DNA from: an uncultured Clostridium sp.
Lineage (GTDB): Bacteria; Bacillota; Clostridia; Oscillospirales; CAG-272
Direction: 5' to 3'
DNA length: 55,467 bases
Assembly: GCA_964463245.1 (NCBI GenBank)
Contig: CAYXBU010000004.1
Coordinates: forward strand, 1-55,467
Shown here: positions 2,463 through 40,667 of the stretch, piece by piece
How positions within the stretch are numbered: the first letter of the stretch is position 1
How the letters are laid out: the number at the start of each line of letters is the position of its first letter
Translations under genes and position numbers: made by a program
The notes under the pieces: generated by a model
Database searches by the model: none
Told to the model about the DNA's origin: nothing
Seen by the model: the letters and a program-made list of their open reading frames with translations, nothing else

Positions 2463-2476
2463 GGAAAAAATGAAAC

Positions 2477-12255: not shown

Positions 12256-13212
12256 ATGGAGGAACGAATGACGGCGGGGTGCGTACAGTGTCCCCGCCTG
12301 TGCGGTGCCGCGCGGGAGGGAGATCGTCTCGGCATCTGCGGTATGCCCCGCGACTTGTATGTGGCGCGGATCGCCCCCCACCACTGGGAGGAGCCGCCCA
12401 TCAGCGGGACGGCTGGCTCGGGGACGGTGTTCTTTTCCGGGTGCAGCCTCGGCTGTGTGTTCTGTCAGAACCACGATATCAGCCGTGGGCGGCAGGGTAC
12501 TCGCCTTACGGAGAGGGAGCTGACCGACCGCCTGCTGAGGCTGGCCGAGAGCGGGGTACACAACCTCAATCTCGTCACCCCGACCCACTATACCGACATA
12601 CTGGTACGGGTGCTGGAGAGGATCAAGCCCCGCCTGTCCGTGCCGGTGGTGTGGAACAGCGGCGGGTATGAGTCGGTGGAGTCCCTTGGGCGGCTGGAAG
12701 GGCTGGTGGATGTGTACCTGCCGGACTTCAAGTATGCCTCCTCCGCCTTGGCAAAGGCACTGTCCGCAGCACCGGACTACCCGGAGGTCGCCGTCGCCGC
12801 CCTGACCGAGATGTACCGTCAGACGGGGCGGGTGCAGTTCAGCTCGGAGGGGGAGGACGGGCTGCTCCTGCGTGGTGTGCTGGTACGGCACCTTGTCCTG
12901 CCGGGGTGTCGGCGGGATTCCATCGCCGTGCTGGAGCGGCTGGCGGCTCTGCTCCCGGCGGGGGATATCCGCCTGTCAGTCATGAGCCAATACACCCCGG
13001 ATTTCCTTGACCCCGCCTTCGCGCTCTCGCCCGACACGGTGGCGGCTCTGGAGGCTGAGGGCATCCGTCCCGCCCTTCGCCGCCGCCTGACGGATTTTGA
13101 GTACCGCTCGGTGCTGGATGCCACCGACCGCTTGGGGCTTGTCGGCTACCGCCAGGATCGCGCCTCGGCGCAGACCTGCTTCACACCGGACTTCGCGGGA
13201 GGTCTGCTCTGA
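12256..13212 (+). CDS. Radical SAM protein, PflX-like (pyruvate formate-lyase activase-related, COG1313-type)
   Basis: 318 aa. Contains the CSLGCVFCQN CxxxCxxC cluster and an N-terminal extra Cys cluster CVQCPRLCG. GGAGG lies 5 nt upstream. Confidence 0.75.
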   Translation: MEERMTAGCVQCPRLCGAAREGDRLGICGMPRDLYVARIAPHHWEEPPISGTAGSGTVFFSGCSLGCVFCQNHDISRGRQGTRLTERELTDRLLRLAESGVHNLNLVTPTHYTDILVRVLERIKPRLSVPVVWNSGGYESVESLGRLEGLVDVYLPDFKYASSALAKALSAAPDYPEVAVAALTEMYRQTGRVQFSSEGEDGLLLRGVLVRHLVLPGCRRDSIAVLERLAALLPAGDIRLSVMSQYTPDFLDPAFALSPDTVAALEAEGIRPALRRRLTDFEYRSVLDATDRLGLVGYRQDRASAQTCFTPDFAGGLL

Positions 13213-13224
13213 GTCGCGTATCGA

Positions 13225-13260
13225 AAAAGCCGTTCCCCTGCCAAATGGGGAACGGCTTTT
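13225..13260. terminator. Bidirectional intrinsic terminator (ends the radical-SAM gene and the aromatic supraoperon)
   Basis: AAAAGCCGTTCCCC-TGCCAAAT-GGGGAACGGCTTTT, a perfect 14-bp stem with A/T tracts on both sides. Confidence 0.85.
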
Positions 13261-13269
13261 CCTTTCGGC

Positions 13270-14301
13270 TCAGAGCGTGTCGGCTATATCCAGGATCAGA
13301 CGCTCGGTCTTCTCCCAGCCGATGCAGGGATCGGTGATGGAGCGACCCAACTCCTCATGGTCGGAGATGCTCTGGGAGCCATCCAAAAGGTAGCTCTCGA
13401 TCATCAGACCCTTGACCAGGCGGCGCACATCCTCCGAGTGGCGGCGGCTGTGGAGGACCTCCTTGGAGATGCGGATCTGCTCCAGATACTTCTTGCCGGA
13501 GTTGGCGTGGTTGGTGTCGATGATGGCGGCGGGATTCTCCAGCCCCGAGGCGGCGTACCGCTCGGCCAGCGCAAGCAGGTCTTCGTAATGGTAGTTCGGG
13601 TAGGAGCGACCGTACTGGTCGACATACCCGCGCAGGATGGCATGGGCGTAAGGATTGCCCTGGCTCTTGACTTCCCAGCCGCGATAGCAGAAGATGTGGG
13701 AATGATGTGCGGCGGTGATGGAGTTCATCATGACCCCGATGTCCCCGCCGGTCGGGTTCTTCATGCCCACCGGGATGTCCAGACCGCTGGCGGTCAGGCG
13801 GTGCTGTTGATCCTCCACCGAGCGGGCACCGACGGCGGTATAGGCCAACAGGTCGGACAGGTAGCGGTGATTCTCCGGGTAGAGCATTTCATCGGCGCAA
13901 GCCAATCCGGTCTCCTCCAGGGCGCGCATATGCAGGCGGCGGATGGCCAAGATGCCCTTGAGCAGGTCGGGGGCGGCGTTGGGGTCAGGCTGGTGCAGCA
14001 TCCCCTTGTAGCCGTCACCCGTGGTGCGGGGCTTGTTGGTGTAGATGCGCGGGACGATCAAGAGCTTGTCCGCGACCTGCTCCTGTACGCGGCGCAGGCG
14101 GTGGATGTACTCCAGAACCGTCTCCTCGTGGTCGGCCGAGCAGGGACCGATGACAAGAATGAACTTATCGGTCTTCCCGGAGAGAATGTCCTTCAGCTCT
14201 GCGACGGTCTTCTCACGGGTGGCAACAGCCTTCTCAGAGGCGGGGTACTGCTCCTTGATCTCCTTGGGGATGGGGAGCTTGCGGTAGAATTGCATATTCA
14301 T
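13270..14301 (-). CDS. 3-deoxy-7-phosphoheptulonate (DAHP) synthase, class I-alpha (AroF/G/H type)
   Basis: 343 aa. IGPCS, KPRTT, GARSVEDQQHR and PVGMKNPTGG align by eye to E. coli AroG motifs. Confidence 0.9.
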   Translation of the reverse strand: MNMQFYRKLPIPKEIKEQYPASEKAVATREKTVAELKDILSGKTDKFILVIGPCSADHEETVLEYIHRLRRVQEQVADKLLIVPRIYTNKPRTTGDGYKGMLHQPDPNAAPDLLKGILAIRRLHMRALEETGLACADEMLYPENHRYLSDLLAYTAVGARSVEDQQHRLTASGLDIPVGMKNPTGGDIGVMMNSITAAHHSHIFCYRGWEVKSQGNPYAHAILRGYVDQYGRSYPNYHYEDLLALAERYAASGLENPAAIIDTNHANSGKKYLEQIRISKEVLHSRRHSEDVRRLVKGLMIESYLLDGSQSISDHEELGRSITDPCIGWEKTERLILDIADTL

Positions 14302-14312
14302 GGTATATCACC

Positions 14313-15200
14313 TCACTGTGTTTCGATGGGGGAATCGTTGGTCTGTGGTTTGTCAAAAAGGGAACGGCGGGCAGTCGCCAGCTGCATCTTCTCCCGCATT
14401 CCGGGGATGTCGCCGTCGGCCAGCAGGGAGCGGAAGGCCGCGAACTCGGCGGCAAATGCATCCATCTCGGCCAGCAAGGCCTCGCGGTTGGCGGAGAACA
14501 GCTCCGCCCACATGGCATCGTTGATCTTTGCAATGCGGGTCAGGTCGCGGAAGGAGTCTCCCGTGTACTTTTCCAGCCCGGTCATGTCGCCTGCATCCAT
14601 CAGGGTGACCGCGATGACGTGGGTCAGCTGGGACAGGAAGGCGATCATGCGGTCGTGCTCGGCGGGGGACAGCTCGGAGATGCGGGAGAAGCCCAGCACC
14701 CGCCCCAGCTCGCGGCAGGTCGCAATGGCCTCGGGGGTATTCCTCTCGGTGGGGGTGACGATGTAGTTCGCGCCGTGAAAGACACTGTCGTCACTGAAGG
14801 CGATGCCAGACCGCTCCCGTCCCGCCATGGGGTGTGCCGAGATGAATTCAACACCATCGGGGAGAAGGGCTTGCACCGTCTCCACCACCCCTGACTTCAC
14901 ACCGGTCACGTCTGTGACCAGTGCTCCGGGGCGGATGAGGTGACCGTAGGTTTGCACCCACTCGATGAAGGTGTGGGGGTAGAGGGCAAAGATCAGAAGG
15001 TCTGCCGCGCCTACATGGGCGGGATCGACTGTTGTGGTGGCGTGCTCCAAGATGCCGTTCTTGCGGGCGTAGCTCACATCGGCCTCCTCCTTGGTGATGG
15101 CCGAGACGGTGTAGCCCTGCCGCGTAAGGGCGCGGGCGTAGCCGCCGCCGATCACGCCGAGACCGATGATAAGGATATGGGTATGTTTGTCAAGCTTCAT
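14313..15200 (-). CDS. tyrA: Prephenate dehydrogenase
   Basis: 295 aa. N-terminal Rossmann IIGLGVIGGG and an HPMAG motif. Overlaps the aroA stop by 11 nt. Confidence 0.85.
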   Translation of the reverse strand: MKLDKHTHILIIGLGVIGGGYARALTRQGYTVSAITKEEADVSYARKNGILEHATTTVDPAHVGAADLLIFALYPHTFIEWVQTYGHLIRPGALVTDVTGVKSGVVETVQALLPDGVEFISAHPMAGRERSGIAFSDDSVFHGANYIVTPTERNTPEAIATCRELGRVLGFSRISELSPAEHDRMIAFLSQLTHVIAVTLMDAGDMTGLEKYTGDSFRDLTRIAKINDAMWAELFSANREALLAEMDAFAAEFAAFRSLLADGDIPGMREKMQLATARRSLFDKPQTNDSPIETQ

Positions 15201-16410
15201 GCTGTATGATCTCCAATTTGATGCCGAGCCTCGTCAGGTCGGCGAAGAAGGTGGGGTAGCTCTTGCACACCGCCTCGGCTCCCGTGATCTCCCCGCCGAG
15301 CAGAGAGAGCAGGACAGAGAGAGCCATGACGATGCGGTGGTCGTTATGCCCGCAGAGCGGGCGGGTCGGGGGATGAAGTTCGACGGGGGACACCGTGACC
15401 CTGTCCTCCTCCACCGTGACGGCCACGCCGCAGGCAGACAGCTCCTCGGCCATGGCGGCCGCGCGGTCGCTCTCCTTGATGCGGAGGCGTGCCGTACCGG
15501 TAAAGGTTCCGCCGTGGCATACCGCCGCGACCGCAAACAGGATGGGGGCAAGGTCGGGGCAGTCCCCGATGTGCAGGGTGGGACAGCCGTCGACCAATCG
15601 GGCAAAGTGGGCACGGTATACGCGGTCGCCCTGCAGGGAGTCGTCGTCCAGCCCCTCTATGACTACCGAGGAGCCGAACAGGTTCAGAGCATCCGGGAAG
15701 GCGGCATTCGACCAGTCCCCCTCTACCCATACCTCTCGTGGCGCATAATGTTGCCCGCCCGGGATGACCAGCGTCTGCCGATCCTCCCACGCGACCTTGA
15801 CACCAAAGGCGGCAAGGGCGCGGATGGTCATGTCGATATACGGGCGACTCTCCACGGCGGTGGAGATAGAGATGCGGCTGTCCTCCGACAGGAGGGGCAG
15901 AGCATAGAGCAGGCCGGTCAAGAACTGACTGCTGATGTTGCCGGCCACGGAATAGGCTCCCGTCCGCAGCTGTCCCTTGACCCGTAGGCGGCTGTTCTCG
16001 CGCTCGAAGAGCAGTCCCTGCTCGGATGCGATCTGCTCGTATACCGAGAGGGGACGGGCAAACAGCCGCTCGGCTCCGACAAAGACCGTCTCCTGCTCGG
16101 AGAGCAGGGCGATCGGAATGAGGAATCGCAGAGTACTGCCACTCTCGCGGCAGGGGAGGGTAGCCCCTGATAGGAATTGTGCAGGTCGGAGACCCCTTAC
16201 AGTGGAAACACCATCGGCAAGGGTGATATCCGCGCCCAGGGCGCGGAGGCAATCCACCGTGGCGGAAACGTCCTGACTATCAGCTATGCCGTGGACGCGG
16301 CTGGTCCCCTCGCACAGGGCGGCGGCCAGAAGCAGGCGGTGCGCCATGCTCTTGGACGGGGGAGCCTGCAGGGAGCCGTGGGCGGTGCTTTTCTCAATGC
16401 GGACACGCAT
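15190..16410 (-). CDS. aroA: 3-phosphoshikimate 1-carboxyvinyltransferase (EPSP synthase)
   Basis: ORF track 15190..16623 trimmed to ATG 16410 (MRVRIEKSTAHGSLQAPPSKSMAHR...), 1 nt after the aroQ stop. Confidence 0.9.
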   Translation of the reverse strand: MRVRIEKSTAHGSLQAPPSKSMAHRLLLAAALCEGTSRVHGIADSQDVSATVDCLRALGADITLADGVSTVRGLRPAQFLSGATLPCRESGSTLRFLIPIALLSEQETVFVGAERLFARPLSVYEQIASEQGLLFERENSRLRVKGQLRTGAYSVAGNISSQFLTGLLYALPLLSEDSRISISTAVESRPYIDMTIRALAAFGVKVAWEDRQTLVIPGGQHYAPREVWVEGDWSNAAFPDALNLFGSSVVIEGLDDDSLQGDRVYRAHFARLVDGCPTLHIGDCPDLAPILFAVAAVCHGGTFTGTARLRIKESDRAAAMAEELSACGVAVTVEEDRVTVSPVELHPPTRPLCGHNDHRIVMALSVLLSLLGGEITGAEAVCKSYPTFFADLTRLGIKLEIIQHEA

Positions 16411-16411
16411 A

Positions 16412-16849
16412 TCAGCTGTCCTCTCTGTTGCACAGCATATCCATGGCCTCGCGGTAGCCGTCGATGCCGTGACCGATGATCGAGGCCACGCAGGCCGCGC
16501 GGATATAGCTGACCTGTCGGAAGTCCTCGCGTTGACTGACATCCGAGATATGCACCTCCACCGTCGGGAGGGAGACCGCCTTGAGGGCATCCAGAAGGGC
16601 GATGCTGGTGTGAGTGTAGGCACCGGGGTTGATCACGATGCCGTCCGCACCGGCGAAGTAGGCTTCCTGTATCTTGTCCACAAGGTCGCCCTCATGGTTG
16701 GATTGATACAGGACAAGCTCCACGCCGCGCTGTGCGGCATGAGTCGTCAGCATCTCGCACAGCTCGGTGTAGCCGGTCTTTCCGTACAGGCTCGGCTCGC
16801 GAATGCCCAGCATATTGAGGTTGGGGCCGTTTATGACATATAGTTTCAT
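16412..16849 (-). CDS. aroQ: Type II 3-dehydroquinate dehydratase
   Basis: MKLYVINGPNLNMLGIREP...HISD. ATG 16849 overlaps the upstream stop (ATGA). Confidence 0.9.
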   Translation of the reverse strand: MKLYVINGPNLNMLGIREPSLYGKTGYTELCEMLTTHAAQRGVELVLYQSNHEGDLVDKIQEAYFAGADGIVINPGAYTHTSIALLDALKAVSLPTVEVHISDVSQREDFRQVSYIRAACVASIIGHGIDGYREAMDMLCNREDS

Positions 16850-18084
16850 GATGACCACTCCTTCAGAACAGCTTCTGTGACCTCATCGATGTCACCGGAT
16901 GCCTCCACGCGACAGTCGGCTGTTTCGACATAGCGCGGGAACCGCTCCTTGTAGCGACGGCGTATGGCCTCGCGGTCGGAGGCCAACGGGCGGTCGGCGG
17001 TGGGGGTCAGCAACTCGGGCGGGCGATCCAAGAAGAACAGCCGCCCGTTCTGCCGCAGGGCGCGGACATTCTCCTCACGCAGGATGCTCCCGCCGCCGGT
17101 CGCAATGACCACTCCCGTCAGGGGGGCAAGCTCGGCTCGGATGACCTGCGACTCCAGCTCTCGGAAGCCACTCTCCCCTTCGGCGGCGAACACGGCGGGA
17201 ATGCTCCGTCCGTGCGCCTCGATGCAGGTGTCGGCATCCAAAAATCGTCTCCTCAGCCGTGCGGCCAGCCGCCGCCCGATGGTGCTCTTGCCGGAGGCGG
17301 GCATACCCGTCAGGACGATGTTCTCCCGCCCTGTCAGCATTTTTTTGTACACTTCATCGGTCGTGCCGTCGGGGTAGACCGTGTCAAGGAACAGTTCGGA
17401 GGCGCGGACGGCCTGCGCCACCAGCATATACAGCCCACCCTCGGCGGGAATGCCGCGCTCGCGCGCATCCAGCACCAGATTCGTGCGGAGGGGATTGTAG
17501 ACCGCATCCACCACCCCGCAGAGGGCGGGGAAGTAGGACAGATCCAGCAGCCTGTCCTCGGCGTGGGGGTACATCCCGACCGGGGTGGTGTTGATGAGGA
17601 AGGTAATGTCGGTGTGATGTGTCTGCAGCTGCTCGTAGGTGATACTGCCGTCCCGTCCCGTGCGCCCGACCCGCAGGATCTCGCGTGCGCCCAGGCTCTC
17701 TGCCACGGCCACCGCCGTGCGGGAGGTACCGCCGGTACCCGTGACCGCCACCTTCTGTCCGCGCAGGTCTATATTCAGGCGGCGGATGAGGGCGGTCATG
17801 CCGTACAGGTCGGTGTTGTAGCCGCAGAGCATCCCGCCTTTGTTGACCACCGTGTTGACCGCGCCGATACGGGCGGCGGTCTCCTCCACCCGGTCAAGGT
17901 ACGGGATGACCGCCCCCTTGTAGGGGATGGTCACATTGATGCCGCAGAAGTCCCGCTTGCGGAGGAAGCCCTCCAGCGCATCGGGGGGCAGGGGGCAGAG
18001 CTCGTAGTCGGGGTTGCCCAGGAGGGCATGGATGTCAGCCGAGAAGCTGTGCCCCAAACGCTCGGCGATACAGCCGTACTTCAC
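16846..18084 (-). CDS. aroE/aroK: Bifunctional shikimate dehydrogenase / shikimate kinase fusion
   Basis: 412 aa. The N-terminal ~265 aa are AroE-like (GINVTIPYK, IGAVNT, GYNTD). The C-terminal ~150 aa are AroK-like (Walker A GMPASGKST). GTG start overlaps the aroC stop (GTGA). Confidence 0.85.
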   Translation of the reverse strand: MKYGCIAERLGHSFSADIHALLGNPDYELCPLPPDALEGFLRKRDFCGINVTIPYKGAVIPYLDRVEETAARIGAVNTVVNKGGMLCGYNTDLYGMTALIRRLNIDLRGQKVAVTGTGGTSRTAVAVAESLGAREILRVGRTGRDGSITYEQLQTHHTDITFLINTTPVGMYPHAEDRLLDLSYFPALCGVVDAVYNPLRTNLVLDARERGIPAEGGLYMLVAQAVRASELFLDTVYPDGTTDEVYKKMLTGRENIVLTGMPASGKSTIGRRLAARLRRRFLDADTCIEAHGRSIPAVFAAEGESGFRELESQVIRAELAPLTGVVIATGGGSILREENVRALRQNGRLFFLDRPPELLTPTADRPLASDREAIRRRYKERFPRYVETADCRVEASGDIDEVTEAVLKEWSS

Positions 18085-19199
18085 GATGTGGCCTCCTCGC
18101 GCAAGCGATCCGGGCAGGCCAGCACGTCGGTGCCATAGCGGCGGGTGATGAGGTCGGCCAGCCCCAGAGCCGTGACCGCCTCCACCACGGGGGCGGCGCG
18201 GTGCAGGATGGCGGGATCATGCCGCCCGTGCAGGGTCAGGGTCTCCTCCCGCAGGGTGATCGGGTCGGCTGTCCGCTGGGGCTTGAAGATGGAGGGGGTC
18301 GGCTTGACCACGACTCGGAAGCGGAGGGGCATACCGTTGGTGATGCCGCCGTTAATGCCGCCGTTGCGGTTGGTCAGGGTGACGACCCGCCCGTCGCGGA
18401 TGACAAAGGGGTCGTTGGCGGTGCTCCCGCGCAGGGTGGCAAAGCCGAAGCCGTCCCCGAACTCCACCCCCTTGACGGCGGGCACCGAGAACAGGAGCTT
18501 GGACAGCTCGCCCTCCACCGTGTCAAACCACGGTTCTCCCAGCCCTACGGGCAGACCGCTGACCAGGGTCTCCAGTATCCCGCCCACGCTGTCGCCGTCC
18601 TCGGCGGCGGCGCGGATGGCCTTGATCATGCGGATGCCCGCCTCGGCATCCAGCACGGGGAAATCCATTTGCGTAAGGCGGGGAAGGTCATCCGGGGTCA
18701 AGGGACAGGTGTCCTCCACCCCCGCGACCTGCGAGATGCGGGTACCGATGCAGATACCGGCATGAGACAGGGCAGGCTCTATGATGGCGGCGGCCGCCAC
18801 GAGCGCGGCGGTCAGACGACCCGAGAAGTGCCCGCCGCCCCGCCTGTCCTCGTAGCCGTGATACTTGCAATAGCCCGCATAGTCAGCGTGACCGGGGCGG
18901 GGCAGGAAGCCCTCGGATGCATAGTCTGCCGAGTGCTGACGGGTGTTGGGGATCAGGATGGTCAGCGGTGTGCCGGTCGTGTGTCCCTGCCATGCGCCGC
19001 TGAGGATGCGGAACTCATCCGGCTCCCGCCGCCCGGTGGACAGGTCATCCTTGGGACGACGACGCGCCAGCCGCGCGGCAATATGCCCCTCGTCGATCGG
19101 GATGCCGGGGGCAAGCCCGTCCAGCACTGCGCCGATGGCCTCCCCGTGACTCTCGCCGAACAGCGTGACGGTCAGGGCTGATCCAAACGTATTCTTCAT
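18081..19199 (-). CDS. aroC: Chorismate synthase
   Basis: ORF track 18081..19379 trimmed to ATG 19199 (MKNTFGSALTVTLFGESHG), which has AAAGGAA 8 nt upstream. The 60 extra N-terminal codons in the track read through repeat copy B. Confidence 0.9.
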   Translation of the reverse strand: MKNTFGSALTVTLFGESHGEAIGAVLDGLAPGIPIDEGHIAARLARRRPKDDLSTGRREPDEFRILSGAWQGHTTGTPLTILIPNTRQHSADYASEGFLPRPGHADYAGYCKYHGYEDRRGGGHFSGRLTAALVAAAAIIEPALSHAGICIGTRISQVAGVEDTCPLTPDDLPRLTQMDFPVLDAEAGIRMIKAIRAAAEDGDSVGGILETLVSGLPVGLGEPWFDTVEGELSKLLFSVPAVKGVEFGDGFGFATLRGSTANDPFVIRDGRVVTLTNRNGGINGGITNGMPLRFRVVVKPTPSIFKPQRTADPITLREETLTLHGRHDPAILHRAAPVVEAVTALGLADLITRRYGTDVLACPDRLREEATS

Positions 19200-19230
19200 G
19201 TGCTCAGTTCCTTTTTCGTTTCTTTTTTCT

Positions 19231-19380
19231 GGGGGGAACTTCCTGAAGGAAGTTTCCCCCGGACTCCTTTCAAGGACTTTTCCGATAATTTTCCTTGTCG
19301 AGGGTAGGCTTGATGACAGTCCTTCTTGTCTCCTTCGCTTATGTGGGAGCCGTGCCCCACAGTGTATTTGAAAAATCAAG
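19231..19380 (-). repeat. Intergenic repeat family 1, copy B (inside the aromatic operon, sense orientation)
   Basis: The rc reads ...CAAATACACTGTGGGGCACGGCTCCCACATAAG...AAAGTCCTTGAAAGGAGTCCGGGGGAAACTTCCTTCAGGAAGTTCCCCCC. It fills most of the 195-nt aroB-aroC gap. Confidence 0.75.
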
Positions 19381-19394
19381 TACTTTTCGATTGT

Positions 19395-20408
19395 CTATCG
19401 CATCTCGTATGCAAGCAATTTCGCCTCCAGCTCGGAGAGCGGGGTCTTCCGTATCTCCCCGTGCCCGATCTTGTCCACGGTCACGGCATACACCGACTCC
19501 GCCTCCCGCTTCTTGTCATGCAGCAGGTAGGGGAACAGGGTGGACATGGGGGCGGGCATCTCGGTCGGGAGACCCAGCCGCGCCCAGATCGGCAAAAGTC
19601 GCTCCCGAACAGCGGGGGCGCACATCGGGAGCATCCCGAGGGCAACGCTCTCCCCGTGGGTCAGACCCCCCAAGCCCTCATGGGCTTCCAGCGCGTGCCC
19701 CAGCGTGTGCCCAAAGTTGAGGATGCGGCGAAGTCCTGCTTCCCGCTCGTCCTCTGCTACCACGGCGGCCTTGATCGCTACGGCGCGGGAGACCAGCTCC
19801 TCCATCGGCGGCAGGGGGTCTTTTTCAAAGAGAGCAAAGCCCTCGGCATCCGAGGTCAATGCCATCTTGACCGCCTCGGCCAGCCCCGAGGAGACCTGGC
19901 GGGGTGGGAGAGTAGCCAGCGTGTCGCAGTCCGCGACTACGCGGCGGGGCTGATAAAAGGAGCCGACGATGTTCTTCACGCCGCCCAGATTGACGGCGGT
20001 CTTGCCGCCGACCGAGGAGTCCACCATGGAGAGAACCGTGGTGGGCAGGTTGTAGAAGTCGATCCCCCGCATATAGATCGAGGCGGCAAAGCCGGCCAGA
20101 TCACCGACTACGCCGCCGCCTACCGCGACCACGCAGTCGGAGCGGGAGAAGCCGTGCTCCAGCATGGCGGAGAGCAAGGTCTCCAGGCAGGAAAGGCTCT
20201 TGGAACCCTCCCCCTGCGGGACGGTCACGCAGACAGGCTCTGCCGCCGCACGGCGGACGGCCTCGGCGTAGGCGGCGGGAACGCCGCTGTCGGTCACGAT
20301 CAGCACCCGCCGCCGAAGCGGGATCAGCTCCCCGATCCGCGCAAGCAGACCGTGTCCGACCAGCACGTCATAGCTGTCCTTTCCCAATTCTACCCGAACG
20401 CTCGTCAT
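19395..20408 (-). CDS. aroB: 3-dehydroquinate synthase
   Basis: ORF track 19395..20432 trimmed to ATG 20408 (MTSVRVELGKDSYDV...), an ATGA overlap with the pheA stop. Motifs GGGVVGDLAGFAA and GHTLGHALE. Confidence 0.9.
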   Translation of the reverse strand: MTSVRVELGKDSYDVLVGHGLLARIGELIPLRRRVLIVTDSGVPAAYAEAVRRAAAEPVCVTVPQGEGSKSLSCLETLLSAMLEHGFSRSDCVVAVGGGVVGDLAGFAASIYMRGIDFYNLPTTVLSMVDSSVGGKTAVNLGGVKNIVGSFYQPRRVVADCDTLATLPPRQVSSGLAEAVKMALTSDAEGFALFEKDPLPPMEELVSRAVAIKAAVVAEDEREAGLRRILNFGHTLGHALEAHEGLGGLTHGESVALGMLPMCAPAVRERLLPIWARLGLPTEMPAPMSTLFPYLLHDKKREAESVYAVTVDKIGHGEIRKTPLSELEAKLLAYEMR

Positions 20409-21496
20409 GCGCGTGCTCCTTCCCGATAGCAACCGACGATCTTGAGCTGCTCGCAGCAGGGAGCCAGATCGGAGAGCAGTGCCTTTCCCTCCGGCTCGTA
20501 CAGGTTGCCGTCTGCCTCGGCAAAGAAATAGTATTGCCAGAACAGCTCCTTCATGGGGCGACTTCGCAGGGTACGCAGGTTGAAGCCGTGCGAACCGATG
20601 ATGTCAATGGCACGAGCCAATGCCCCCGCCTGATTGGGCACGGTAAAGAGGAGGATGGAGTGGACTCCCTGCTCGGCAGACGACGGGCGGTGGGGGGTGC
20701 GGGAGAAGACCGCGAAGCGGGTGGAGTTGGTGTTGGCGGTATTGATATTCGTGGCCAGCACCTCCAGCCCGAACAGCTCCGCCGCCTCCCGTGAGGCGAT
20801 GGCGGCGACCGTCCGATCCTCGGAGTTGGCAACGAAGCGGGCGGCCAGTGCCGTGTTGGAGTGCTCCTCGGTGCGGAAGCCGTGCTTTTGAATGTAGGCG
20901 GCGCACTGACCCAGTGCCTGCGGGTGGCTGACCACCGTGCGGATGTCCGCCAGCTGTGTGCCGGGCTTGGCCAGCAGATCCTGCGTGACCGGCAGCTCGG
21001 TCATCTCGTTGACCGACAGGGAACCCGAGAACATCAGGTCGGTCACGGCACCCACCTCGCCCTGAAAGCTGTTCTCCACCGGCAGGAGCACCAGGTCGCA
21101 CTCCCCCTCCTCCACTGCACGGTAGGCGGCGGCGAAGTCCGGGTAGGGAACCGCCGTGGCGGCCGGGTAGAGCTTCCGCACGGCTAAGTGGGCGAAGGCT
21201 CCCTCGGTGCCCGCGTAGGCGACACGAACCCCCGAAAGCAGATACCGCTGGTATTGGCGGGAGACGGACATGGTGTCCCTCAGAAACTCAACATAAAAGG
21301 AGCGCAGCTCCTCCGGTACCGACTCGGCGCGCCGACTGACAATGTCGGCCTCTCGCGCCGCGTCCAGTATGGGTAGCCCGCGCTCTCCCTTGAAGGCGGC
21401 TACCGACTCGGCCGCCCGCATCCGTCGGCAGAACAGCTCTGCCATCTCGCGATCGATCTGATCAATCTCGGCTCTTGCCGCTTGTAACTCGTTCAT
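20405..21496 (-). CDS. pheA: Bifunctional chorismate mutase / prephenate dehydratase (CM-PDT-ACT)
   Basis: 363 aa. N-terminal CM helix (LQAARAEIDQIDREMAELFCRRM), a PDT core (TRF, ESRP-like SRPMK) and a C-terminal ACT region. Confidence 0.88.
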   Translation of the reverse strand: MNELQAARAEIDQIDREMAELFCRRMRAAESVAAFKGERGLPILDAAREADIVSRRAESVPEELRSFYVEFLRDTMSVSRQYQRYLLSGVRVAYAGTEGAFAHLAVRKLYPAATAVPYPDFAAAYRAVEEGECDLVLLPVENSFQGEVGAVTDLMFSGSLSVNEMTELPVTQDLLAKPGTQLADIRTVVSHPQALGQCAAYIQKHGFRTEEHSNTALAARFVANSEDRTVAAIASREAAELFGLEVLATNINTANTNSTRFAVFSRTPHRPSSAEQGVHSILLFTVPNQAGALARAIDIIGSHGFNLRTLRSRPMKELFWQYYFFAEADGNLYEPEGKALLSDLAPCCEQLKIVGCYREGARA

Positions 21497-21570
21497 GTAC
21501 CTGCCGCGGATGCTCCGCGTCTCCTTTGTGATGTATATCTTTTATTGATGAATATCTGCCATCGCTCGGA

Positions 21571-22773
21571 TCATTGTCCGGGGGTCAACCCGTATTCCTG
21601 CGCCAGAGCCATGAAGCCGGGCAGAGCCAGCTCAACTGTGCGGCGGCTGACACAGTAGGCGATCCGCACATAGCCGGGACAGCCAAAGCTGTCCGACGGG
21701 ACAAACAGGATGCCGTGGGTCTTGGCTCTCTCCAGGAAGGCATTGGCATCCGACTCGGGGGACTTCAAAAAGAGGTAGAAAGCACCCTTCGGGCAGACTG
21801 CCTCGAATCCGTAAGAGGTCAGCTCATCATACAGCAGGCGGCGGTTGCCGTCATAGACCGACAGGTCTGCCGTCTTGCCGAGGCAGGCGGGGATCATGCG
21901 CTGGAAGAGCGCGGGGGCGCAGACATAGCCCATCCCTCGCGCCGCGCCCATCAGAGCCTCGTAGACCGCACGGGCATCCGCCGCACCGGGGTGCACCAGC
22001 ACATACCCGATGCGCTCGCCCGGCAGGGACAGCGACTTACTGAAGGAGTAGCAGACCAGCGTGTTCTCGTAGTAGACAAGCGGTGCCGGGACAGACTTCC
22101 CGTCGTACACCAGCTCGCGGTACGGCTCGTCCGACACGAGGTAGATGGCGTGTCCATAGGTCGCCGACTTCTCACGGAGCAGAGCCGCCAGCGCGGTCAG
22201 CTCCTCGACCGACAGGATAGCCCCGGTGGGGTTGTTGGGGGAGTTGATCACCACCAGCCTTGTGTGCGCCGTGATGGCGCGGCCGAGAGCTTCCATGTCC
22301 GGGGCAAAGCTCGGTTCACGGGCGGGTACCTCCACGACCCGTGCGCCGGCGTGCTCCAAGAACACCCGGTATTCCGGGAAGCAGGGGGTGAGGATGACAG
22401 CCTCGTCCCCGTCTCCGGGGGAGAGCAGAGCACCAAAGCAGGCCGTCAGAGCGGCGGCGGCTCCCACTGTCAGGTAGATCAGGGCGGGGTCGACCTCGAC
22501 TCCCGTGGTCTCGCGTGTATAGGCGGCGATGGCGGCACGGACGGTCGGGTCTCCCGCCGCTGTGGTGTAGCCGTGCAGGGCGGTCGGGTCACTGTCTCGC
22601 AACAGGGTCTCCAGGGTCTCGGTGACCACCGATGGGGGCGGAACCGAGGGGTTGCCGATGGTGAAATCCAGCACGGCATCCTCGCCCGCCTCCTGCTTGC
22701 GGCGGGTCGCATACTCAAACAGCTCCCGAATGGCCGAGCGATTCGCCCCCAGCCTGCGGGCTGACTCATTCAT
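21571..22773 (-). CDS. Class I/II pyridoxal-phosphate aminotransferase (likely aromatic/aspartate aminotransferase)
   Basis: ORF track 21571..22854 trimmed to ATG 22773 (MNESARRLGANRSAIRE...). Motifs INSPNNPTG and SFSKSLSLPGERIGY (PLP lysine). Confidence 0.85.
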   Translation of the reverse strand: MNESARRLGANRSAIRELFEYATRRKQEAGEDAVLDFTIGNPSVPPPSVVTETLETLLRDSDPTALHGYTTAAGDPTVRAAIAAYTRETTGVEVDPALIYLTVGAAAALTACFGALLSPGDGDEAVILTPCFPEYRVFLEHAGARVVEVPAREPSFAPDMEALGRAITAHTRLVVINSPNNPTGAILSVEELTALAALLREKSATYGHAIYLVSDEPYRELVYDGKSVPAPLVYYENTLVCYSFSKSLSLPGERIGYVLVHPGAADARAVYEALMGAARGMGYVCAPALFQRMIPACLGKTADLSVYDGNRRLLYDELTSYGFEAVCPKGAFYLFLKSPESDANAFLERAKTHGILFVPSDSFGCPGYVRIAYCVSRRTVELALPGFMALAQEYGLTPGQ

Positions 22774-22819
22774 GTGAAAGCACTTCCTTTTCTTGTGGGT
22801 TGCGGTCGCTTGTCGCGGC

Positions 22820-23614
22820 TTACCCCAGCAGTCCGCGGTCGCTGGTGAACTCACTGCCGCTGCAGGCGGCGAACTTTTCCAGAAGCTCCGCTACGGTAAG
22901 GTTCTTTTTCTCCTCGCCCGCAATATCCAGAATGATGCGCCCCGCGTGGAGCATGATGAGCCGGTCGCCGTAGCGGATGGCATCCTTCATGTTGTGGGTG
23001 ATCATCAGGGTGGTCAGGTTCTCCTCGCGGACGATGCGCTCGGTGATGGACATGACGGTATCGGCGGTCTTGGGGTCAAGTGCGGCGGTATGCTCGTCCA
23101 GAAGGAGCAGACGCGGCTTTTGCAGGGTCGCCATCAGAAGGGTGAGAGCCTGCCGCTGACCGCCCGAGAGGGTACCGGCCTTAGCCGACAGGCGGGTCTC
23201 CAGTCCCAGCCCCAACTCGGCCAGCCGACGGCGGTAGTCCTCGCGCTCCTCGCGGCGGATGCCGGGCAGGAGGGTGCGGGACTTGCCGCGCCGATAGGCC
23301 AGCGCAAGGTTCTCCTCGATCTGCATAGCGGCGGCGGTGCCGACCATCGGGTCTTGATACACCCGCCCGAGGTATTTGGCTCGCTTGTGCTCGGGCAGGC
23401 GGGTCACATCGATGCCGTCCAAGAGGATGCTCCCCTCGTCCGGCAGCCAAGTCCCGCAGATGGCGTTCTGCATGGTGCTCTTACCGGCACCGTTGCCGCC
23501 GATGACGGTCACGAACTCGCCGTCCTGCAGGGTCAAGGACATATCATCCAGAGCCACCTTCTCATCGATGGTGCCCTTATTGAATATTTTGGTCACGTTT
23601 CGCATCTCAAGCAT
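22820..23614 (-). CDS. ABC transporter ATP-binding protein (partner of the PF04392-type binding protein)
   Basis: ORF track 22820..23677 trimmed to ATG 23614 (MLEMRNVTKIF...), an 8-nt overlap with the permease stop. Walker A GGNGAGKST, signature LSGGQRQ, Walker B LLLDEHTAALD. Confidence 0.88.
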   Translation of the reverse strand: MLEMRNVTKIFNKGTIDEKVALDDMSLTLQDGEFVTVIGGNGAGKSTMQNAICGTWLPDEGSILLDGIDVTRLPEHKRAKYLGRVYQDPMVGTAAAMQIEENLALAYRRGKSRTLLPGIRREEREDYRRRLAELGLGLETRLSAKAGTLSGGQRQALTLLMATLQKPRLLLLDEHTAALDPKTADTVMSITERIVREENLTTLMITHNMKDAIRYGDRLIMLHAGRIILDIAGEEKKNLTVAELLEKFAACSGSEFTSDRGLLG

Positions 23615-24512
23615 GGTGTTTTCCTCCCTTCCCGGAGTGGAGGCCGGTGCGGATCTTGCCGGCAACATAGGGGACACCCAAGAAGATCACGACCACCACG
23701 GCAGACAGTGCCTTGAGCAGGTCGGCATCAAGTCCTAAGAAGATGACGGTCTGGTAGACGAAGTAGTAGATGACAGCACCGACCATGACGCCACCCAGCT
23801 TGATGGCAAAGTTGGAGCCGATGTGCTTGACTACCGCCTCGCCGATGACCACGGCGGCCAGACCGATGACCACGGCGCCGCGTCCCATGTTGATGTCGGC
23901 GGCACCCTCATACTGACAGCGGAGACCGCCTGCCAGCGCGACCAGCCCGTTGGACAGAGCCAGCCCGATGATCTTGCAGACACCGGTGTTGATGCCCTGT
24001 GCGCGGCTCATGATGGGGTTGCAACCGGTCGCACGGATGGCACAGCCCAGCTCGGTGCCGAAGAAGAGGTACAGAAGCCCGACTAAGATCACCGCCGCGA
24101 TGCCCAGGAGGATCAGGGCGGAGGGGATGTTCATCTGGGACAGCAATACGGGGTAGTTACGGGCAGGGAGAGCCTGATTGGCTTTTCCCATGATCTTCAG
24201 ATTGACCGACCACAGCACCATCTGGGTCAGAATACCCGACAGGATGGCGGGGATGCCCAGCCCGATATGCAGGGCACCGGTCACACACCCGGCGATCAGC
24301 CCGGAGGCGAAGGCCGCCAGCAGTGCCAGCCATGGGTTCACACCGCTCCTCATGAGCATGGTGCAGACAGCCGCGCCGGTGCAGATCGAGCCGTCCACCG
24401 TCATATCGGCCATGTCCAGAATACGGTAGGTAATGTATACGCCCAGTGCCACGATGCCCCAGGTCAATCCCTGTGCTGCGGCACCCGGCAGGGAGGATAG
24501 CCAGTCTAACAT
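23607..24512 (-). CDS. ABC transporter permease (BPD/LivH-like fold)
   Basis: 301 aa, polytopic. Lies directly between the binding-protein and ATPase genes. Confidence 0.85.
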   Translation of the reverse strand: MLDWLSSLPGAAAQGLTWGIVALGVYITYRILDMADMTVDGSICTGAAVCTMLMRSGVNPWLALLAAFASGLIAGCVTGALHIGLGIPAILSGILTQMVLWSVNLKIMGKANQALPARNYPVLLSQMNIPSALILLGIAAVILVGLLYLFFGTELGCAIRATGCNPIMSRAQGINTGVCKIIGLALSNGLVALAGGLRCQYEGAADINMGRGAVVIGLAAVVIGEAVVKHIGSNFAIKLGGVMVGAVIYYFVYQTVIFLGLDADLLKALSAVVVVIFLGVPYVAGKIRTGLHSGKGGKHHA

Positions 24513-24563
24513 ACGGTCAACTCCTTACATTTCGTGATGGATGTTCAAGCGGACGGAGTACCG

Positions 24564-25541
24564 TCACTCGCCGATCTTCTTGTAGTCAGCGGGGGGCGTG
24601 ATGCCCAGCTCGGCGCAGACATCCGCGTTGTATTGCTTGGTGGCACTTGCATACTCAATGGGCATCTCGGAAATATCTGCCTCGCCCTTGAGGACCTTGA
24701 CTGCCATCTCACCGGTCTTGTAGCCGAGATCATAGTAGCTGATGGCAAGGGTCGCCGCGCCGCAGGCATTGCAGATACCGGATTCTCCCGCGATGACCGG
24801 TACCTTGGCGGGACGAACCACTCCGCCGATGGCCTCGGCGCAGGTGGCGGCGGTGTTATCGGTCGGGACATAGATGACATCGCTGTTGTTGGTGGCGGTC
24901 GTGGTCACCGAGATGACATCGTTGGAGTCCGAGAAGGGGAAGCGAGTGCAGACAAGACCCTTGCCGGTCAGGTATTCCGCCACGACCTTGACTTGATACT
25001 CCGAGTTCGGCTCGGCCGAGCAATAGAGGAGTCCCACCTTCTCGGCATTCGGGAACAGCTCCATGAGCATATCCGCCTGCTCAGTCAGGGGAGCGAGGTC
25101 GGAGGTGCCGGACACATTACCGCCGACGGTTCCGTTGAAGTCCTTGAGCCCCAGCGCGAAACCGTATTCGGTCACGGAGGTGCCCAAGATCGGGATGGTC
25201 TCGGTCGCGTTGTAGGCGGCCTGAAGAGCCGAGGTGGCATTGGCCATGATCAGATCCACCTTCTTGGATACAAAGGAATTGACGATGGTGGTACAGGTCT
25301 GGGTATCCCCTGCGGCGTTCTGCAGGTCAAAGGTCACATTCTCCTCGCCCAGCCCGGCGATGACGGCATCCTGAAAGCCCTTTGTGGCGGCATCCAGCGC
25401 GTCGTGGGTGGTCAGCTGGCAGATGCCGATGGTGTACTTGGTCTTGGCGCCGCAGGACGCGAGCGGCAGGACGGATGAGAGAGCCAGCACCAGTGCCAGC
25501 AGGATAAGACATACGGAACGACGGGTCTTGACGGTCTTCAT
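24564..25541 (-). CDS. ABC transporter substrate-binding lipoprotein, ABC_sub_bind (PF04392-like) family
   Basis: ORF track 24564..25643 trimmed to ATG 25541 (MKTVKTRRSVCLILLALVLALSSVLPLASCG, lipobox LASC), which has GGAGGAG 6 nt upstream. IGICQLTTHDALDAA, NVSGTSD and DVIYVPTDNT match the family pattern from memory. Confidence 0.85.
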   Translation of the reverse strand: MKTVKTRRSVCLILLALVLALSSVLPLASCGAKTKYTIGICQLTTHDALDAATKGFQDAVIAGLGEENVTFDLQNAAGDTQTCTTIVNSFVSKKVDLIMANATSALQAAYNATETIPILGTSVTEYGFALGLKDFNGTVGGNVSGTSDLAPLTEQADMLMELFPNAEKVGLLYCSAEPNSEYQVKVVAEYLTGKGLVCTRFPFSDSNDVISVTTTATNNSDVIYVPTDNTAATCAEAIGGVVRPAKVPVIAGESGICNACGAATLAISYYDLGYKTGEMAVKVLKGEADISEMPIEYASATKQYNADVCAELGITPPADYKKIGE

Positions 25542-25589
25542 AGGAAGCTCCTCCAAAATGAATAGATTTGGATACGCGAGGGGGGGGGC

Positions 25590-25632
25590 GCGGTAAAAAA
25601 GCAAAAACCGCACGGACTTGCGATCCATGCGG
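25590..25632 (-). terminator. Leader (attenuator) intrinsic terminator
   Basis: RNA: CCGCAUGGA-UCGCAAG-UCCGUGCGG (9 bp, one GU) followed by UUUUUGCUUUUUU. It sits between the leader ORF and the binding-protein RBS. Confidence 0.8.
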
Positions 25633-25714
25633 CAACACCTCATACCTTTTGCTTTCCTTTGTAAGGACGGTCGGCTTTATGCAGGTACCTGTTCATGTGC
25701 ATCACAAATCGCTT

Positions 25715-25798
25715 TTACTTCGTTTCCATAAAGGAATAAAAGTAAAAGTAGCTAAAGCTGTAAAAGCGAACTGCCATGCTGTGAGCCATGCCTGCCAT
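25715..25798 (-). CDS. Candidate Phe/Tyr-rich leader peptide (27 aa) MAGMAHSMAVRFYSFSYFYFYSFMETK
   Basis: This is the 3' part of track ORF 25715..25954. ATG 25798 has GGGAG 8 nt upstream and lies about 30 nt downstream of a consensus promoter. 5 UUU and 4 UAC/UAU codons fall within 12 codons. The stop codon is embedded in a stem. Confidence 0.6.
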   Translation of the reverse strand: MAGMAHSMAVRFYSFSYFYFYSFMETK

Positions 25799-25831
25799 CT
25801 TCCGGTCTCCCTTCCGCTGAAAGTTGTATGG

Positions 25832-25860
25832 ATTATACCACATTCCCGCGCGGTTGTCAA
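25832..25860 (-). promoter_or_regulatory. Consensus promoter TTGACA-17-TATAAT (TGG extended -10) of the leader/ABC/aromatic operon
   Basis: rc of 25832-25860 is TTGACAaccgcgcgggaatgtggTATAAT. Confidence 0.7.
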
Positions 25861-25950
25861 GGGGTTTTTCGCTATTTTGTGTCATGGAAATGCATAAAAA
25901 TTGCAACTCGTGCGGGAAATGCCGGATATACGGGAAAAACGCGGGATCAT

Positions 25951-27006
25951 TCAATATTTGAACAGCTCGACGGCATTGGTACGCAGGGACATCTGCCGCG
26001 AGAGTGTCGGGTCAGCCTTCTGTGTCATGGAGAGGGTCACATGACGGAGGGACAGCCGCCGATTGTCGGGGTCGGTTTGAGGTCTCCCGATCTCCATCTT
26101 CACCCGTGAGCCGTTGAAGGCCGAGGCCGCCGACAGGCACTCGTATCCGCCCAGAAGACTGCCCATCCTGTCCCGCGTGCGGTAGACCGTCTCCAGCCCG
26201 GGGATGGGCTCGGCGATCCGCAGGGTCTCCACATCCATGTCCAGACGGATGGAAAGCGGCTCGGCGGACAGGGCATCGGGGGCATTGAGTGTAAAGGAGA
26301 CCATGCCGTCGTGGGAGGCATAGGTGCGCGCCATGGACAGACCGTACAGAAGAAAAGCCTCCCAGATGAGCGGGTGTGAGAAGAACACATCCTGCGTCGG
26401 CAGGAATCCGTTGTGCAGCTTCTCCTGCGCCTCGCACCCGATGGCGGTCGCAAAGGAGCATATGGCGGCGGCTATGGTACGCAGAGAGACGGTGGGTGCA
26501 TCGCCCTGCGGCAGGAGAAAGGGCAACCGCTCGGTCAGATCGTAGGTGGTCTCTCGCATGACCATGTAGGTCTCCGGGTCGCAACGCGCGCCGCCTCGCC
26601 GCCGTACCTCCTCGGATATGATCCAGTCGGGGTGTAAAAAGCCCCGGCAGGCGGCCGAGGCGGCACGGGTGACCGGTGCGTGGAAGTGGATCAGGAGTCC
26701 CAACCCGCAGGGGATATAGTAGCGCTTGGACAGCAGAGCCGGTCCGTGCGCGGTCATGATCAGGAGCGGGCGGGTCTCGCAGGAGGAGAACCACGCTCGC
26801 GCCTCGTCCGAGAAGTGGACGAAACGGTAGATGTTCTTGCCCGGCTCCCAAGTGCGGACGGGAGCGCGGGAGGCCACGATCTGGCCGGGCAGGACATCCA
26901 GCCCGAACAGGGCATAGCTGACGCCGTACACATACCCGGGCGGCAGGATCGCCTCCGGTGGATAGTTGAAGGACCATCGGGTGTATGTACTGGTGGTGCG
27001 GGACAT
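25951..27006 (-). CDS. Hypothetical protein (351 aa), no recognisable domain
   Basis: ORF track 25951..27153 trimmed to ATG 27006 (MSRTTSTYTRWSFNYPPE...), which has AAGGAGG 8 nt upstream. No TM helix or signal peptide. The overlapping track ORF 26012..27535 (Arg/Gly/Pro-rich) was judged spurious. Confidence 0.65.
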   Translation of the reverse strand: MSRTTSTYTRWSFNYPPEAILPPGYVYGVSYALFGLDVLPGQIVASRAPVRTWEPGKNIYRFVHFSDEARAWFSSCETRPLLIMTAHGPALLSKRYYIPCGLGLLIHFHAPVTRAASAACRGFLHPDWIISEEVRRRGGARCDPETYMVMRETTYDLTERLPFLLPQGDAPTVSLRTIAAAICSFATAIGCEAQEKLHNGFLPTQDVFFSHPLIWEAFLLYGLSMARTYASHDGMVSFTLNAPDALSAEPLSIRLDMDVETLRIAEPIPGLETVYRTRDRMGSLLGGYECLSAASAFNGSRVKMEIGRPQTDPDNRRLSLRHVTLSMTQKADPTLSRQMSLRTNAVELFKY

Positions 27007-27168
27007 ACGAAAAGCCTCCTTGTCGTTCTGCTGGTAATTGATAGACTCTGTTGTTGCCCAACAGCGCAATGAGGTGCAATGCCGGGTTGAAAAGGGTGTT
27101 GTTCTCAGGGCGCGGGAGAAAAGCCTCTTCCGAGCCGCTTCTCTCCCGCGCATAAGTGCTATATGATC

Positions 27169-40633: not shown

Positions 40634-40667
40634 AATAAAAATAATAAGTAAATGAGAGGTATATACT

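Follow-up and report, generated by a model that had tools for sequence, protein, structure and literature searches.

An operon fusion predicted to place the phenylalanine and tyrosine pathway behind an importer's leader-peptide attenuator in an uncultured Clostridium

The DNA analysed here, referred to as the window, is a stretch of 55,467 nucleotides (nt) from an uncultured Clostridium sp. (GenBank assembly GCA_964463245.1, contig CAYXBU010000004.1) with a G+C content of about 62%. According to Pfam and NCBIfam annotation, 12 minus-strand genes run uninterrupted from 25541 to 13270, beginning with the three genes of an ATP-binding cassette (ABC) importer and continuing with nine genes for the synthesis of phenylalanine (Phe) and tyrosine (Tyr), here called the aro genes. 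Judged by sequence comparison, this array is a recent, lineage-specific fusion of two ancestrally independent operons, and the Tyr/Phe-rich leader at its head is ancestrally the transporter's own attenuator rather than a leader of the aro pathway. On balance, we consider it probable that the leader now governs all 12 genes as one unit, presumably through a single transcript. Control by a single leader is supported by the loss of the terminator and promoter between the ancestral operons, by the lack of strong internal signals, and by metatranscriptome contigs that cross gene junctions. A sequence-only reading of the window had proposed one leader for the 12 genes; the packed array between one strong promoter with its attenuator and one terminator agrees with that proposal, while an origin of the leader in the aro pathway does not agree with the comparison.

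The importer stands alone in loci L001, L004, L007 and L012-L091, where the leader, if present, is followed by the three transporter genes, a hairpin terminator right after the ATPase gene, and then unrelated, often convergent genes. No aro genes were found near the transporter in any of 80 loci from species genomes or in any of 80 metagenome loci retrieved with the ATPase as query, 50 of which continue for over 1.5 kb past the ATPase. Apart from the window, the fusion was seen only in L005 and L006, whose proteins are 94-99% identical to those of the window. Neither the genome scan with the binding protein nor the metagenome scan with the ATPase revealed further fused lineages, and the best ATPase identity in the metagenomes was 80%. 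The 12-gene supraoperon that the sequence-only reading had treated as a unit is therefore not conserved. That reading had also tied the importer both to aromatic genes and to the leader; among orthologous transporters the first linkage never recurs, whereas the second is found in about half.

The aro genes, for their part, are found as a separate nine-gene operon, with unchanged order, in L009 (PheA 76% identical) and in L010 and L011 (66%). In L009 and L010, for which the upstream region is covered, this operon is headed by a TTGACC-17-TATAAT promoter with TGTTAAC-nn-TGTTAAC directly after it. A divergent TetR-family gene lies upstream of the stand-alone operon (L009:362-1672, L010:7896-8763; 57% identity between the two loci), and its product is a candidate regulator of aromatic amino-acid synthesis in these Clostridia. 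The window lacks the TGTTAAC repeat as well as the TetR gene, and there the stop codon of the ATPase gene is followed by 46 nt with neither a hairpin nor a promoter-like site. With the importer terminator and the aro promoter lost in the rearrangement, the two signals that kept the units apart were removed. An alignment of the 46-nt spacer with the ancestral aro 5' untranslated region was unconvincing, and thus we claim no exact breakpoints.

We are highly confident that the leader acts as a ribosome-mediated attenuator. Its predicted architecture is that of a classical one, and it would respond to Tyr and Phe. The leader open reading frame (ORF) has nine Phe/Tyr codons inside 12 positions, in the run UUU UAC AGC UUU AGC UAC UUU UAC UUU UAU UCC UUU. 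Downstream lies a switch strand, region 2, which may pair with the Phe/Tyr codons (1:2) or, as the antiterminator (2:3), with the terminator apex. The terminator hairpin proper (3:4) extends from 25633 to 25607, and its U-tract follows.

The leader is shared across species. Orthologous binding proteins (60-78% identical) were taken from 80 species-representative genomes, mostly metagenome-assembled genomes of Oscillospiraceae, Acutalibacteraceae and Eubacteriales, and a short Tyr/Phe-rich ORF precedes the binding-protein gene in 39 of the 80, or about half of these Oscillospiraceae-, Acutalibacteraceae- and Eubacteriales-like genomes (for example, MKLVRRVADLYYYYYYFYFTKVIAICDAHKRIFA and MLGRTGGRNSANRYYSYYYFYFYLYSSEVKAICDAHEQVPA). 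The peptides share a tail, xVxAICDA, which is the translation of the near-invariant RNA strand GUAAAAGCGAUUUGUGAUGC. In an RNA alignment of 23 distinct leaders (A1), 94.9% of cells in the terminator are paired, six of its 11 pairs have changed on both sides, and none of 500 shuffles was as good. The antiterminator, in which GAUUUGUGAU pairs with the terminator apex AUCGCAAGUC (apex consensus AUCRCAAGUC), has 95.2% of cells paired, compared to 29-50% when the strands are slid. Variation on its 3' side is wobble-compatible except for an A-C mismatch at one pair (10 of 23 leaders) and one further cell; because the 5' strand is invariant, compensatory double changes are not possible. When the 3' arm of the terminator is left out, as in a nascent RNA, the minimum-energy fold is the antiterminator, at -27.9 kcal/mol. 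The putative 1:2 pairing reaches -24.2 kcal/mol in the window and overlaps the Phe/Tyr codon run. At least seven contiguous 1:2 pairs are present in all 23 leaders, with CUUUUAC/GUAAAAG becoming CUAUUAC/GUAAUAG in some species.

The position at which the leader ORF ends differs among species. In the window it stops at a UAA inside switch strand 2 (25715-25720, AAG UAA AAG CG), and in most relatives strand 2 is read in a different frame and the ORF stops 10-15 codons further on (xVxAICDA...; L001:9698-9823, L004:9764-9871); therefore the window and its relatives may occlude strand 2 differently. We also considered whether Phe enrichment is specific to the leader of the fused lineage and rejected this, as its ratio of five Phe to four Tyr codons falls within the range of the stand-alone relatives.

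The mechanism that we propose combines these structures with the history of the locus. When charged Tyr-tRNA and Phe-tRNA are available, the ribosome would complete the 27-codon leader and halt at the UAA within strand 2, which would then be occluded or paired with the Phe/Tyr codon region. The 11-bp terminator would form, and transcription would stop near 25594, ahead of the first gene. If Tyr or Phe is short, the ribosome would stall on the codon run, strand 2 would pair with the terminator apex, and RNA polymerase would read on. The rearrangement would have put the nine-gene aro operon directly behind the importer, deleting the importer terminator together with the promoter, operator and TetR gene of the aro operon, so that read-through of the leader most likely carries polymerase through 12 genes to the terminator at 13260-13224. 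Starvation for Tyr or Phe would then induce uptake and synthesis together.

Scans for transcription signals are consistent with this proposal. Within 12500-26500, the sole perfect sigma-70-type promoter is TTGACA-17-TGnTATAAT at 25860-25832, directly upstream of the leader, and L005 also carries this promoter. The scan gave five hits in all, compared to 3.0 +/- 2.1 in shuffles. No sigma-70-like site was found by it in any intergenic gap, the aroB-aroC repeat described below included; promoters of other types may be present. A candidate internal promoter at 15193-15166 (11 of 12 matches) was rejected: it lies within the first tyrA codons (MKLDK), TTGACA being imposed by the coding of L-D-K, and L009 does not retain the -10 element. 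In a hairpin scan covering 25900-13150 on the sense strand, strong hairpins with a U-tract occur at two sites only, the attenuator (3' end at about 25609; -15.3 kcal/mol in the scan, where a 40-nt window clips the stem, and -17.8 for the whole hairpin) and the terminator at the end of the array, with no strong terminator on that strand between 25594 and 13260. Four further hits are weak and irregular (-10 to -11 kcal/mol), and all are within coding sequence. The end terminator, whose stem spans 13256-13229 followed by a U-tract, is common to the array and the convergent gene at 12256-13212. These results bear out the earlier statement that no hairpin with a U-tract interrupts the genes before the bidirectional terminator. 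At the other end of the array, no terminator is visible in 25861-25950, downstream of the same-strand gene at 25951-27153, which has no NCBIfam match.

RNA evidence comes from assembled metatranscriptome contigs (Logan), which are unstranded and in which DNA carry-over is possible. Contigs from three runs cross the junction of the ATPase and aminotransferase genes (22236-23014, 22655-22908 and 22748-22907), and two link the attenuator to the binding-protein gene (25347-26004 and 25286-25742), the first of which also spans the region between the upstream gene and the leader. The gap between the aminotransferase gene and pheA is spanned by one low-depth contig from X23 (21431-21653).

The 195-nt gap between aroB and aroC is occupied by an inserted dispersed repeat; in relatives the two genes overlap instead. 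Three copies are found in the window, at 19200-19394 (-), 40500-40667 (+) and about 2330-2480 (+). The repeat is intergenic and about 175 nt long, and consists of a TGTGGGG...CTCCACA hairpin, AAAGTCCTTGAAGGGG, and then a very stable GGGGAAACTTCC-TTCA-GGAAGTTTCCCC hairpin. In the gap, this second hairpin (19260-19231) is followed by an A-rich tract and no U-tract, and therefore it is not a canonical terminator for the aro transcript. In the first two copies, a ribosome-binding site and an ATG come after the A-rich tract. The DNA depth of the 50-nt core is about 16-20 times that of its flanks, which points to some 15-20 copies in each genome; the ratio in RNA contigs is similar. A spike in RNA depth at 19231-19280 was considered as a highly expressed small RNA or promoter and rejected, since DNA shows the same excess of about 16-fold; the equal excess indicates that the repeat is multi-copy, not over-expressed. 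The repeat was found in none of 91 loci from relatives, and it has no Rfam match at E <= 1. It could be similar to repetitive extragenic palindromic elements or miniature inverted-repeat transposable elements, or it could be a stabiliser of 5' untranslated regions, and it may affect the stability of the aro transcript.

It is possible, though in our estimation unlikely, that the array is transcribed as at least two units, with the leader controlling only the importer, or the genes up to aroB, and the aro genes expressed mainly from internal promoters. Such promoters would lie inside the ATPase gene or the 46-nt spacer, or in the aroB-aroC repeat, and the packing of the genes would reflect the history of the fusion and not common regulation. 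This explanation fits the independence of the two blocks in every other relative examined and the presence of a 195-nt element with stable hairpins in the aroB-aroC gap. Contig depth in X21 over the aro genes is not below that over the binding-protein gene. Indeed, it is lower over the binding-protein gene than over the downstream genes, which would fit extra internal initiation, but this contrast is unreliable because of cross-mapping from related species and through conserved ATPase motifs, and DNA shows the same inflation. The shikimate pathway also feeds tryptophan (Trp), folate and quinones, and a tight shut-off governed by Tyr and Phe only would be risky. This argues for leaky termination or extra weak promoters, and since chorismate is required for Trp and folate, some expression independent of Tyr and Phe would be expected.

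These considerations weigh against control of the whole array by the leader, as do several others. The RNA contigs, being unstranded and perhaps containing DNA, give no usable depth profile, and none from X21, X22 or X24 covers the gap between the aminotransferase gene and pheA. A single transcript from 25830 to 13260, as the sequence-only reading envisaged, would fit the contigs over the attenuator and binding-protein gene and over the ATPase-aminotransferase junction, but no RNA contig bridges the whole aroB-aroC gap. There, the repeat hairpin could pause or partly terminate transcription, serve in RNA processing, or carry a promoter not of the sigma-70 type. Some transcription may also enter the leader from the upstream gene, although the attenuator would still act on it. 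In the leader itself, a swap control for the 1:2 pairing (7.39 versus 7.06) places it barely above chance in these U/A-rich sequences. Against two units, no sigma-70-like site is present in any gap or in the repeat, the ancestral aro promoter, TGTTAAC repeat and TetR gene are gone, no terminator follows the ATPase gene, and RNA-derived contigs from three runs cross the ATPase-aminotransferase junction. The RNA spike in the repeat reflects DNA copy number, with no sign of a strong promoter. One unit governed by the leader remains the reading that we favour.

It is very unlikely that the leader is not ribosome-mediated, with a protein- or tRNA-dependent switch of the T-box or TRAP type doing the work and the short ORF incidental. 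T-boxes are the usual amino-acid sensors in Firmicutes, and the related TrpXYZ system is controlled by one (PMC9382623). However, an Rfam search of the whole window at the gathering score returned only two tRNAs and no T-box (RF00230), and the leader region (25500-25900) has no match at E <= 1. A Shine-Dalgarno sequence precedes the leader ORF, and the Tyr/Phe run persists at the protein level across species despite nucleotide changes; the pairing partner of switch region 2 coincides in part with this run. Upstream of the binding-protein gene in leaderless orthologues (Blautia, Ruminococcus and others), no T-box was found either. For the ribosome-mediated leader, no description was found in the open-access literature. 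We regard it as about an even chance that the leader represents a family of ribosome-mediated attenuators in gut Clostridia that had gone undescribed, of which it would be the first member recognised, with importer control as its native job; in that case the window would represent a natural regulator swap.

That the importer and aro operon are not truly adjacent is extremely improbable: although the sequence appears to be metagenome-assembled and has within the array a multi-copy repeat of the kind at which misassembly typically occurs, the junction at 22774-22819 lies away from that repeat and recurs in L005, which comes from another sample and has the same order of ABC, aminotransferase, pheA and aroB genes, in a 3012-nt DNA contig from X1 that covers 21300-23012, and in RNA contigs of three runs. 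The repeat and its two flanks are each traversed by a 9466-nt contig from X1 and a 5995-nt contig from X2, both identical in base sequence to the window apart from one gap in the X1 contig. Across 18800-19800 and 21300-23012, the window is collinear with DNA contigs from other runs.

The sequence-only reading had called the importer uncharacterised, yet its family has solved members with assigned ligands. The closest solved structure to the binding protein is CD0873 of C. difficile (PDB 6HNI, E = 7e-51), followed by SP1069 (3LFT) and VC_1101 (3LKV); these bind tyrosine, Trp and Phe, respectively (PMC6816091). In CD0873, Glu263 forms a hydrogen bond with the hydroxyl of Tyr, and Trp is kept out by Tyr279, a position at which SP1069 has Gln (PMC6816091). 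Glu253 and Tyr269 of the window protein align to these two residues. Of 94 binding-protein matches, 89 keep the equivalent Glu and Tyr and five, all of them extra tandem or distant copies, carry Asp in place of Glu. With 210.9 bits, the window protein falls short of the cutoff of 390 for the TrpX equivalog NF041285, and it has Tyr at the position of Gln284 in SP1069. Pfam scores for the three importer proteins are 178.8 (PF04392), 94.3 (BPD_transp_2) and 98.2 bits (ABC ATPase). The pocket residues, the low TrpX score and the dominance of Tyr in the leaders make tyrosine the most likely substrate, with phenylalanine possible, and we consider this predicted Tyr(/Phe) specificity likely. The earlier suggestion of an aromatic importer can accordingly be narrowed to a protein predicted, from the CD0873 match and the Glu/Tyr pair, to be very probably of the tyrosine type. 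Its mention of the streptococcal TrpXYZ proteins as predicted Trp importers was correct: TrpXYZ is an experimentally established tryptophan importer and is T-box regulated in S. suis (PMC9382623).

Some leaderless relatives have an additional binding-protein gene in tandem, placed ahead of the first (L044:3735-4604, L059:8977-9873, L062:8032-8988, L085:2193-3116, L090:13-324). In these additional proteins, the Glu that contacts the tyrosine hydroxyl is replaced by Asp (motif GD[TFA]), and their preferred ligand may therefore differ. In L059, a T-box leader (L059:12887-13128, 96.9 bits) comes immediately after the first ABC operon and ahead of a second, distantly related ABC system of the PF04392-like type, with about 29% identity in the binding protein.

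The pathway from phosphoenolpyruvate and erythrose 4-phosphate to Phe and Tyr is complete in the array, comprising the seven shikimate steps, chorismate mutase, prephenate dehydratase, prephenate dehydrogenase and an aminotransferase, and no trp genes are present in the 12-gene unit (Table 1). All pathway domains exceed their Pfam gathering scores except ACT (25.1 versus 27). The aminotransferase, of class I/II, matches NF005305 with 503 bits (cutoff 376), and the DAHP synthase matches TIGR00034 with 265 bits (cutoff 173). Neighbouring genes overlap by ATGA at 20408-20405 and 16849-16846, by GTGA at 18084-18081, by 8 nt at 23607-23614 and by 11 nt at 15190-15200, or are separated by gaps of 1 nt (16411) and 11 nt (14302-14312); larger gaps measure 46 nt (22774-22819), 74 nt (21497-21570) and 195 nt (19200-19394). 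Pfam and NCBIfam confirm the identities of the 12 same-strand genes given by the sequence-only reading, including all seven shikimate steps, both branch enzymes and the aminotransferase, and each overlap and gap that it listed matches the ORF coordinates and the sequence; its list lacked only the 51-nt gap between the binding-protein and permease genes (24513-24563).

The true start of the binding protein is the ATG at 25541 (MKTVKTRR..., with the lipobox LASC). A longer ORF from 25643 is spurious, as it would take in the attenuator terminator. Gene callers nevertheless begin this ORF upstream, inside or before the terminator (25541-25643 in the window; P0001, 353 amino acids; P0002, 428 amino acids; L005:2094), and these overlong models of 353-428 amino acids hide the leader and attenuator in public annotations.

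Table 1. Positions of the regulatory signals and genes of the array in the window.
Feature	Position	Strand	Evidence or remark
Sigma-70-type promoter: TTGACA (25860-25855), 17-nt spacer with TG, TATAAT (25837-25832)	25832..25860	-	12/12 matches, extended -10
Leader ORF MAGMAHSMAVRFYSFSYFYFYSFMETK and stop, 27 codons (5 Phe, 4 Tyr, 0 Trp), GGGAG Shine-Dalgarno upstream	25715..25798	-	
Region 2 switch strand GUAAAAGCGAUUUGUGAUGC, near-invariant	25699..25718	-	Invariant columns in alignment A1
Attenuator terminator, 11-bp hairpin GCCGCAUGGAU-CGCAA-GUCCGUGCGGU, then UUUUGCUUUUUU	25594..25633	-	-17.8 kcal/mol; covariation
Substrate-binding lipoprotein, PF04392, predicted CD0873-like tyrosine-type pocket (Glu253, Tyr269)	24564..25541	-	Pfam, NCBIfam, PDB match
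ABC permease, BPD_transp_2	23607..24512	-	Pfam
ABC ATPase; 8-nt overlap with permease, same overlap in relatives	22820..23614	-	Pfam
Fusion junction, 46-nt spacer	22774..22819	-	No hairpin or promoter-like site; RNA contigs cross
Class I aminotransferase (PRK06836 type), first gene of ancestral 9-gene aro operon	21571..22773	-	Pfam, NCBIfam
PheA, chorismate mutase-prephenate dehydratase-ACT (CM_2-PDT-ACT)	20405..21496	-	Pfam, NCBIfam
AroB, 3-dehydroquinate synthase	19395..20408	-	Pfam
Inserted dispersed repeat between aroB and aroC	19200..19394	-	Two hairpins; absent in relatives
AroC, chorismate synthase	18081..19199	-	Pfam
AroE-AroK fusion, shikimate dehydrogenase and shikimate kinase	16846..18084	-	Pfam, NCBIfam
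AroQ, type II 3-dehydroquinate dehydratase	16412..16849	-	Pfam
AroA, EPSP synthase	15190..16410	-	Pfam
TyrA, prephenate/arogenate dehydrogenase	14313..15200	-	NCBIfam
DAHP synthase, class I-alpha (AroFGH type)	13270..14301	-	NCBIfam
Bidirectional intrinsic terminator: AAAA, GCCGUUCCCC, 8-nt loop, GGGGAACGGC, UUUUU	13224..13260	.	-21.8 kcal/mol

The locus offers a dated before-and-after view of regulon rewiring by operon fusion, in which both ancestral states are still visible in relatives. If our reading is true, a whole pathway was stripped of promoter, operator-like repeat and TetR neighbour, and one fusion put it under an RNA device that responds to tRNA charging. The leader also extends leader-peptide attenuation to abundant uncultured gut Clostridia and to a transporter as target, and the covarying RNA alignment of 23 leaders could be the basis for a family model. 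The sequence-based substrate call, tyrosine and possibly phenylalanine, concerns a very common gut ABC importer and is relevant to how microbes process aromatic amino acids and the metabolites derived from them. The kinds of system combined here are all known, namely leader-peptide attenuation, CD0873-type importers and aro operons; the more general and more novel element is what may be a widespread, undescribed family of Tyr/Phe leaders in gut Clostridia.

Similar arrangements are found in several known systems. Like the attenuators of the E. coli pheL-pheA and trpL type, the window leader has an ORF rich in regulatory codons, mutually exclusive 2:3 and 3:4 pairings with a putative 1:2 alternative, and a terminator before the first gene, and, as in pheL-pheA, a pheA gene encoding chorismate mutase-prephenate dehydratase lies downstream. 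It differs from them in having no sequence similarity and no Rfam match, in mixing Tyr and Phe codons, and in that its antiterminator strand binds the terminator at the loop and apex. Moreover, its ancestral target is predicted to be an importer and not a biosynthetic operon, and here it heads 12 genes.

The importer itself resembles two characterised systems. CD0873 (PDB 6HNI, 6HNJ and 6HNK; PMC6816091) is likewise a PF04392 lipoprotein with the pocket residues Glu263 and Tyr279, a VPTDN segment, and a layout of binding-protein, permease and ATPase genes. The identity between the two proteins is moderate, the window protein has Gly in place of Ala262 of CD0873, and its binding of tyrosine is predicted; an adhesin role is not implied for it. 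No description of a Tyr/Phe leader for CD0873 was found in the literature. TrpXYZ (SP1069, PDB 3LFT; PMC9382623) belongs to the same transporter family and is also governed by an RNA device that senses charging of the cognate tRNA, but the window protein has Tyr for Gln284 of SP1069, which accommodates Trp, and Glu for an Ala of SP1069, and the device in the window is a leader peptide, not a T-box.

As an aromatic supraoperon, the array can be compared with that of B. subtilis. The latter has the order aroF-aroB-aroH-trpEDCFBA-hisC-tyrA-aroE, includes trp genes, and is controlled by TRAP and internal promoters. Both units place many aromatic genes, among them an aminotransferase gene and tyrA, on one strand with overlapping junctions. 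In contrast to the array of the window, which has all seven shikimate steps, pheA and tyrA but no trp genes, the B. subtilis unit contains neither a transporter nor a leader peptide.

Leader-peptide attenuators are known but uncommon in Firmicutes (PMC2965389, PMC9413887, PMC5794164), and they are rare in Clostridia, the class to which the host of the window belongs (PMC2965389, PMC9413887). Those with His codons occur in the B. cereus group, Peptostreptococcaceae and Erysipelotrichales, upstream of his operons and of hisS and hisZ paralogues (PMC9413887, PMC2965389), and a Leu-rich attenuator precedes the ilv genes of S. aureus (PMC5794164). These His and Leu leaders of Firmicutes provide a precedent for leader-peptide attenuation, while the amino acid, the sequences and the target genes differ from those of the window.

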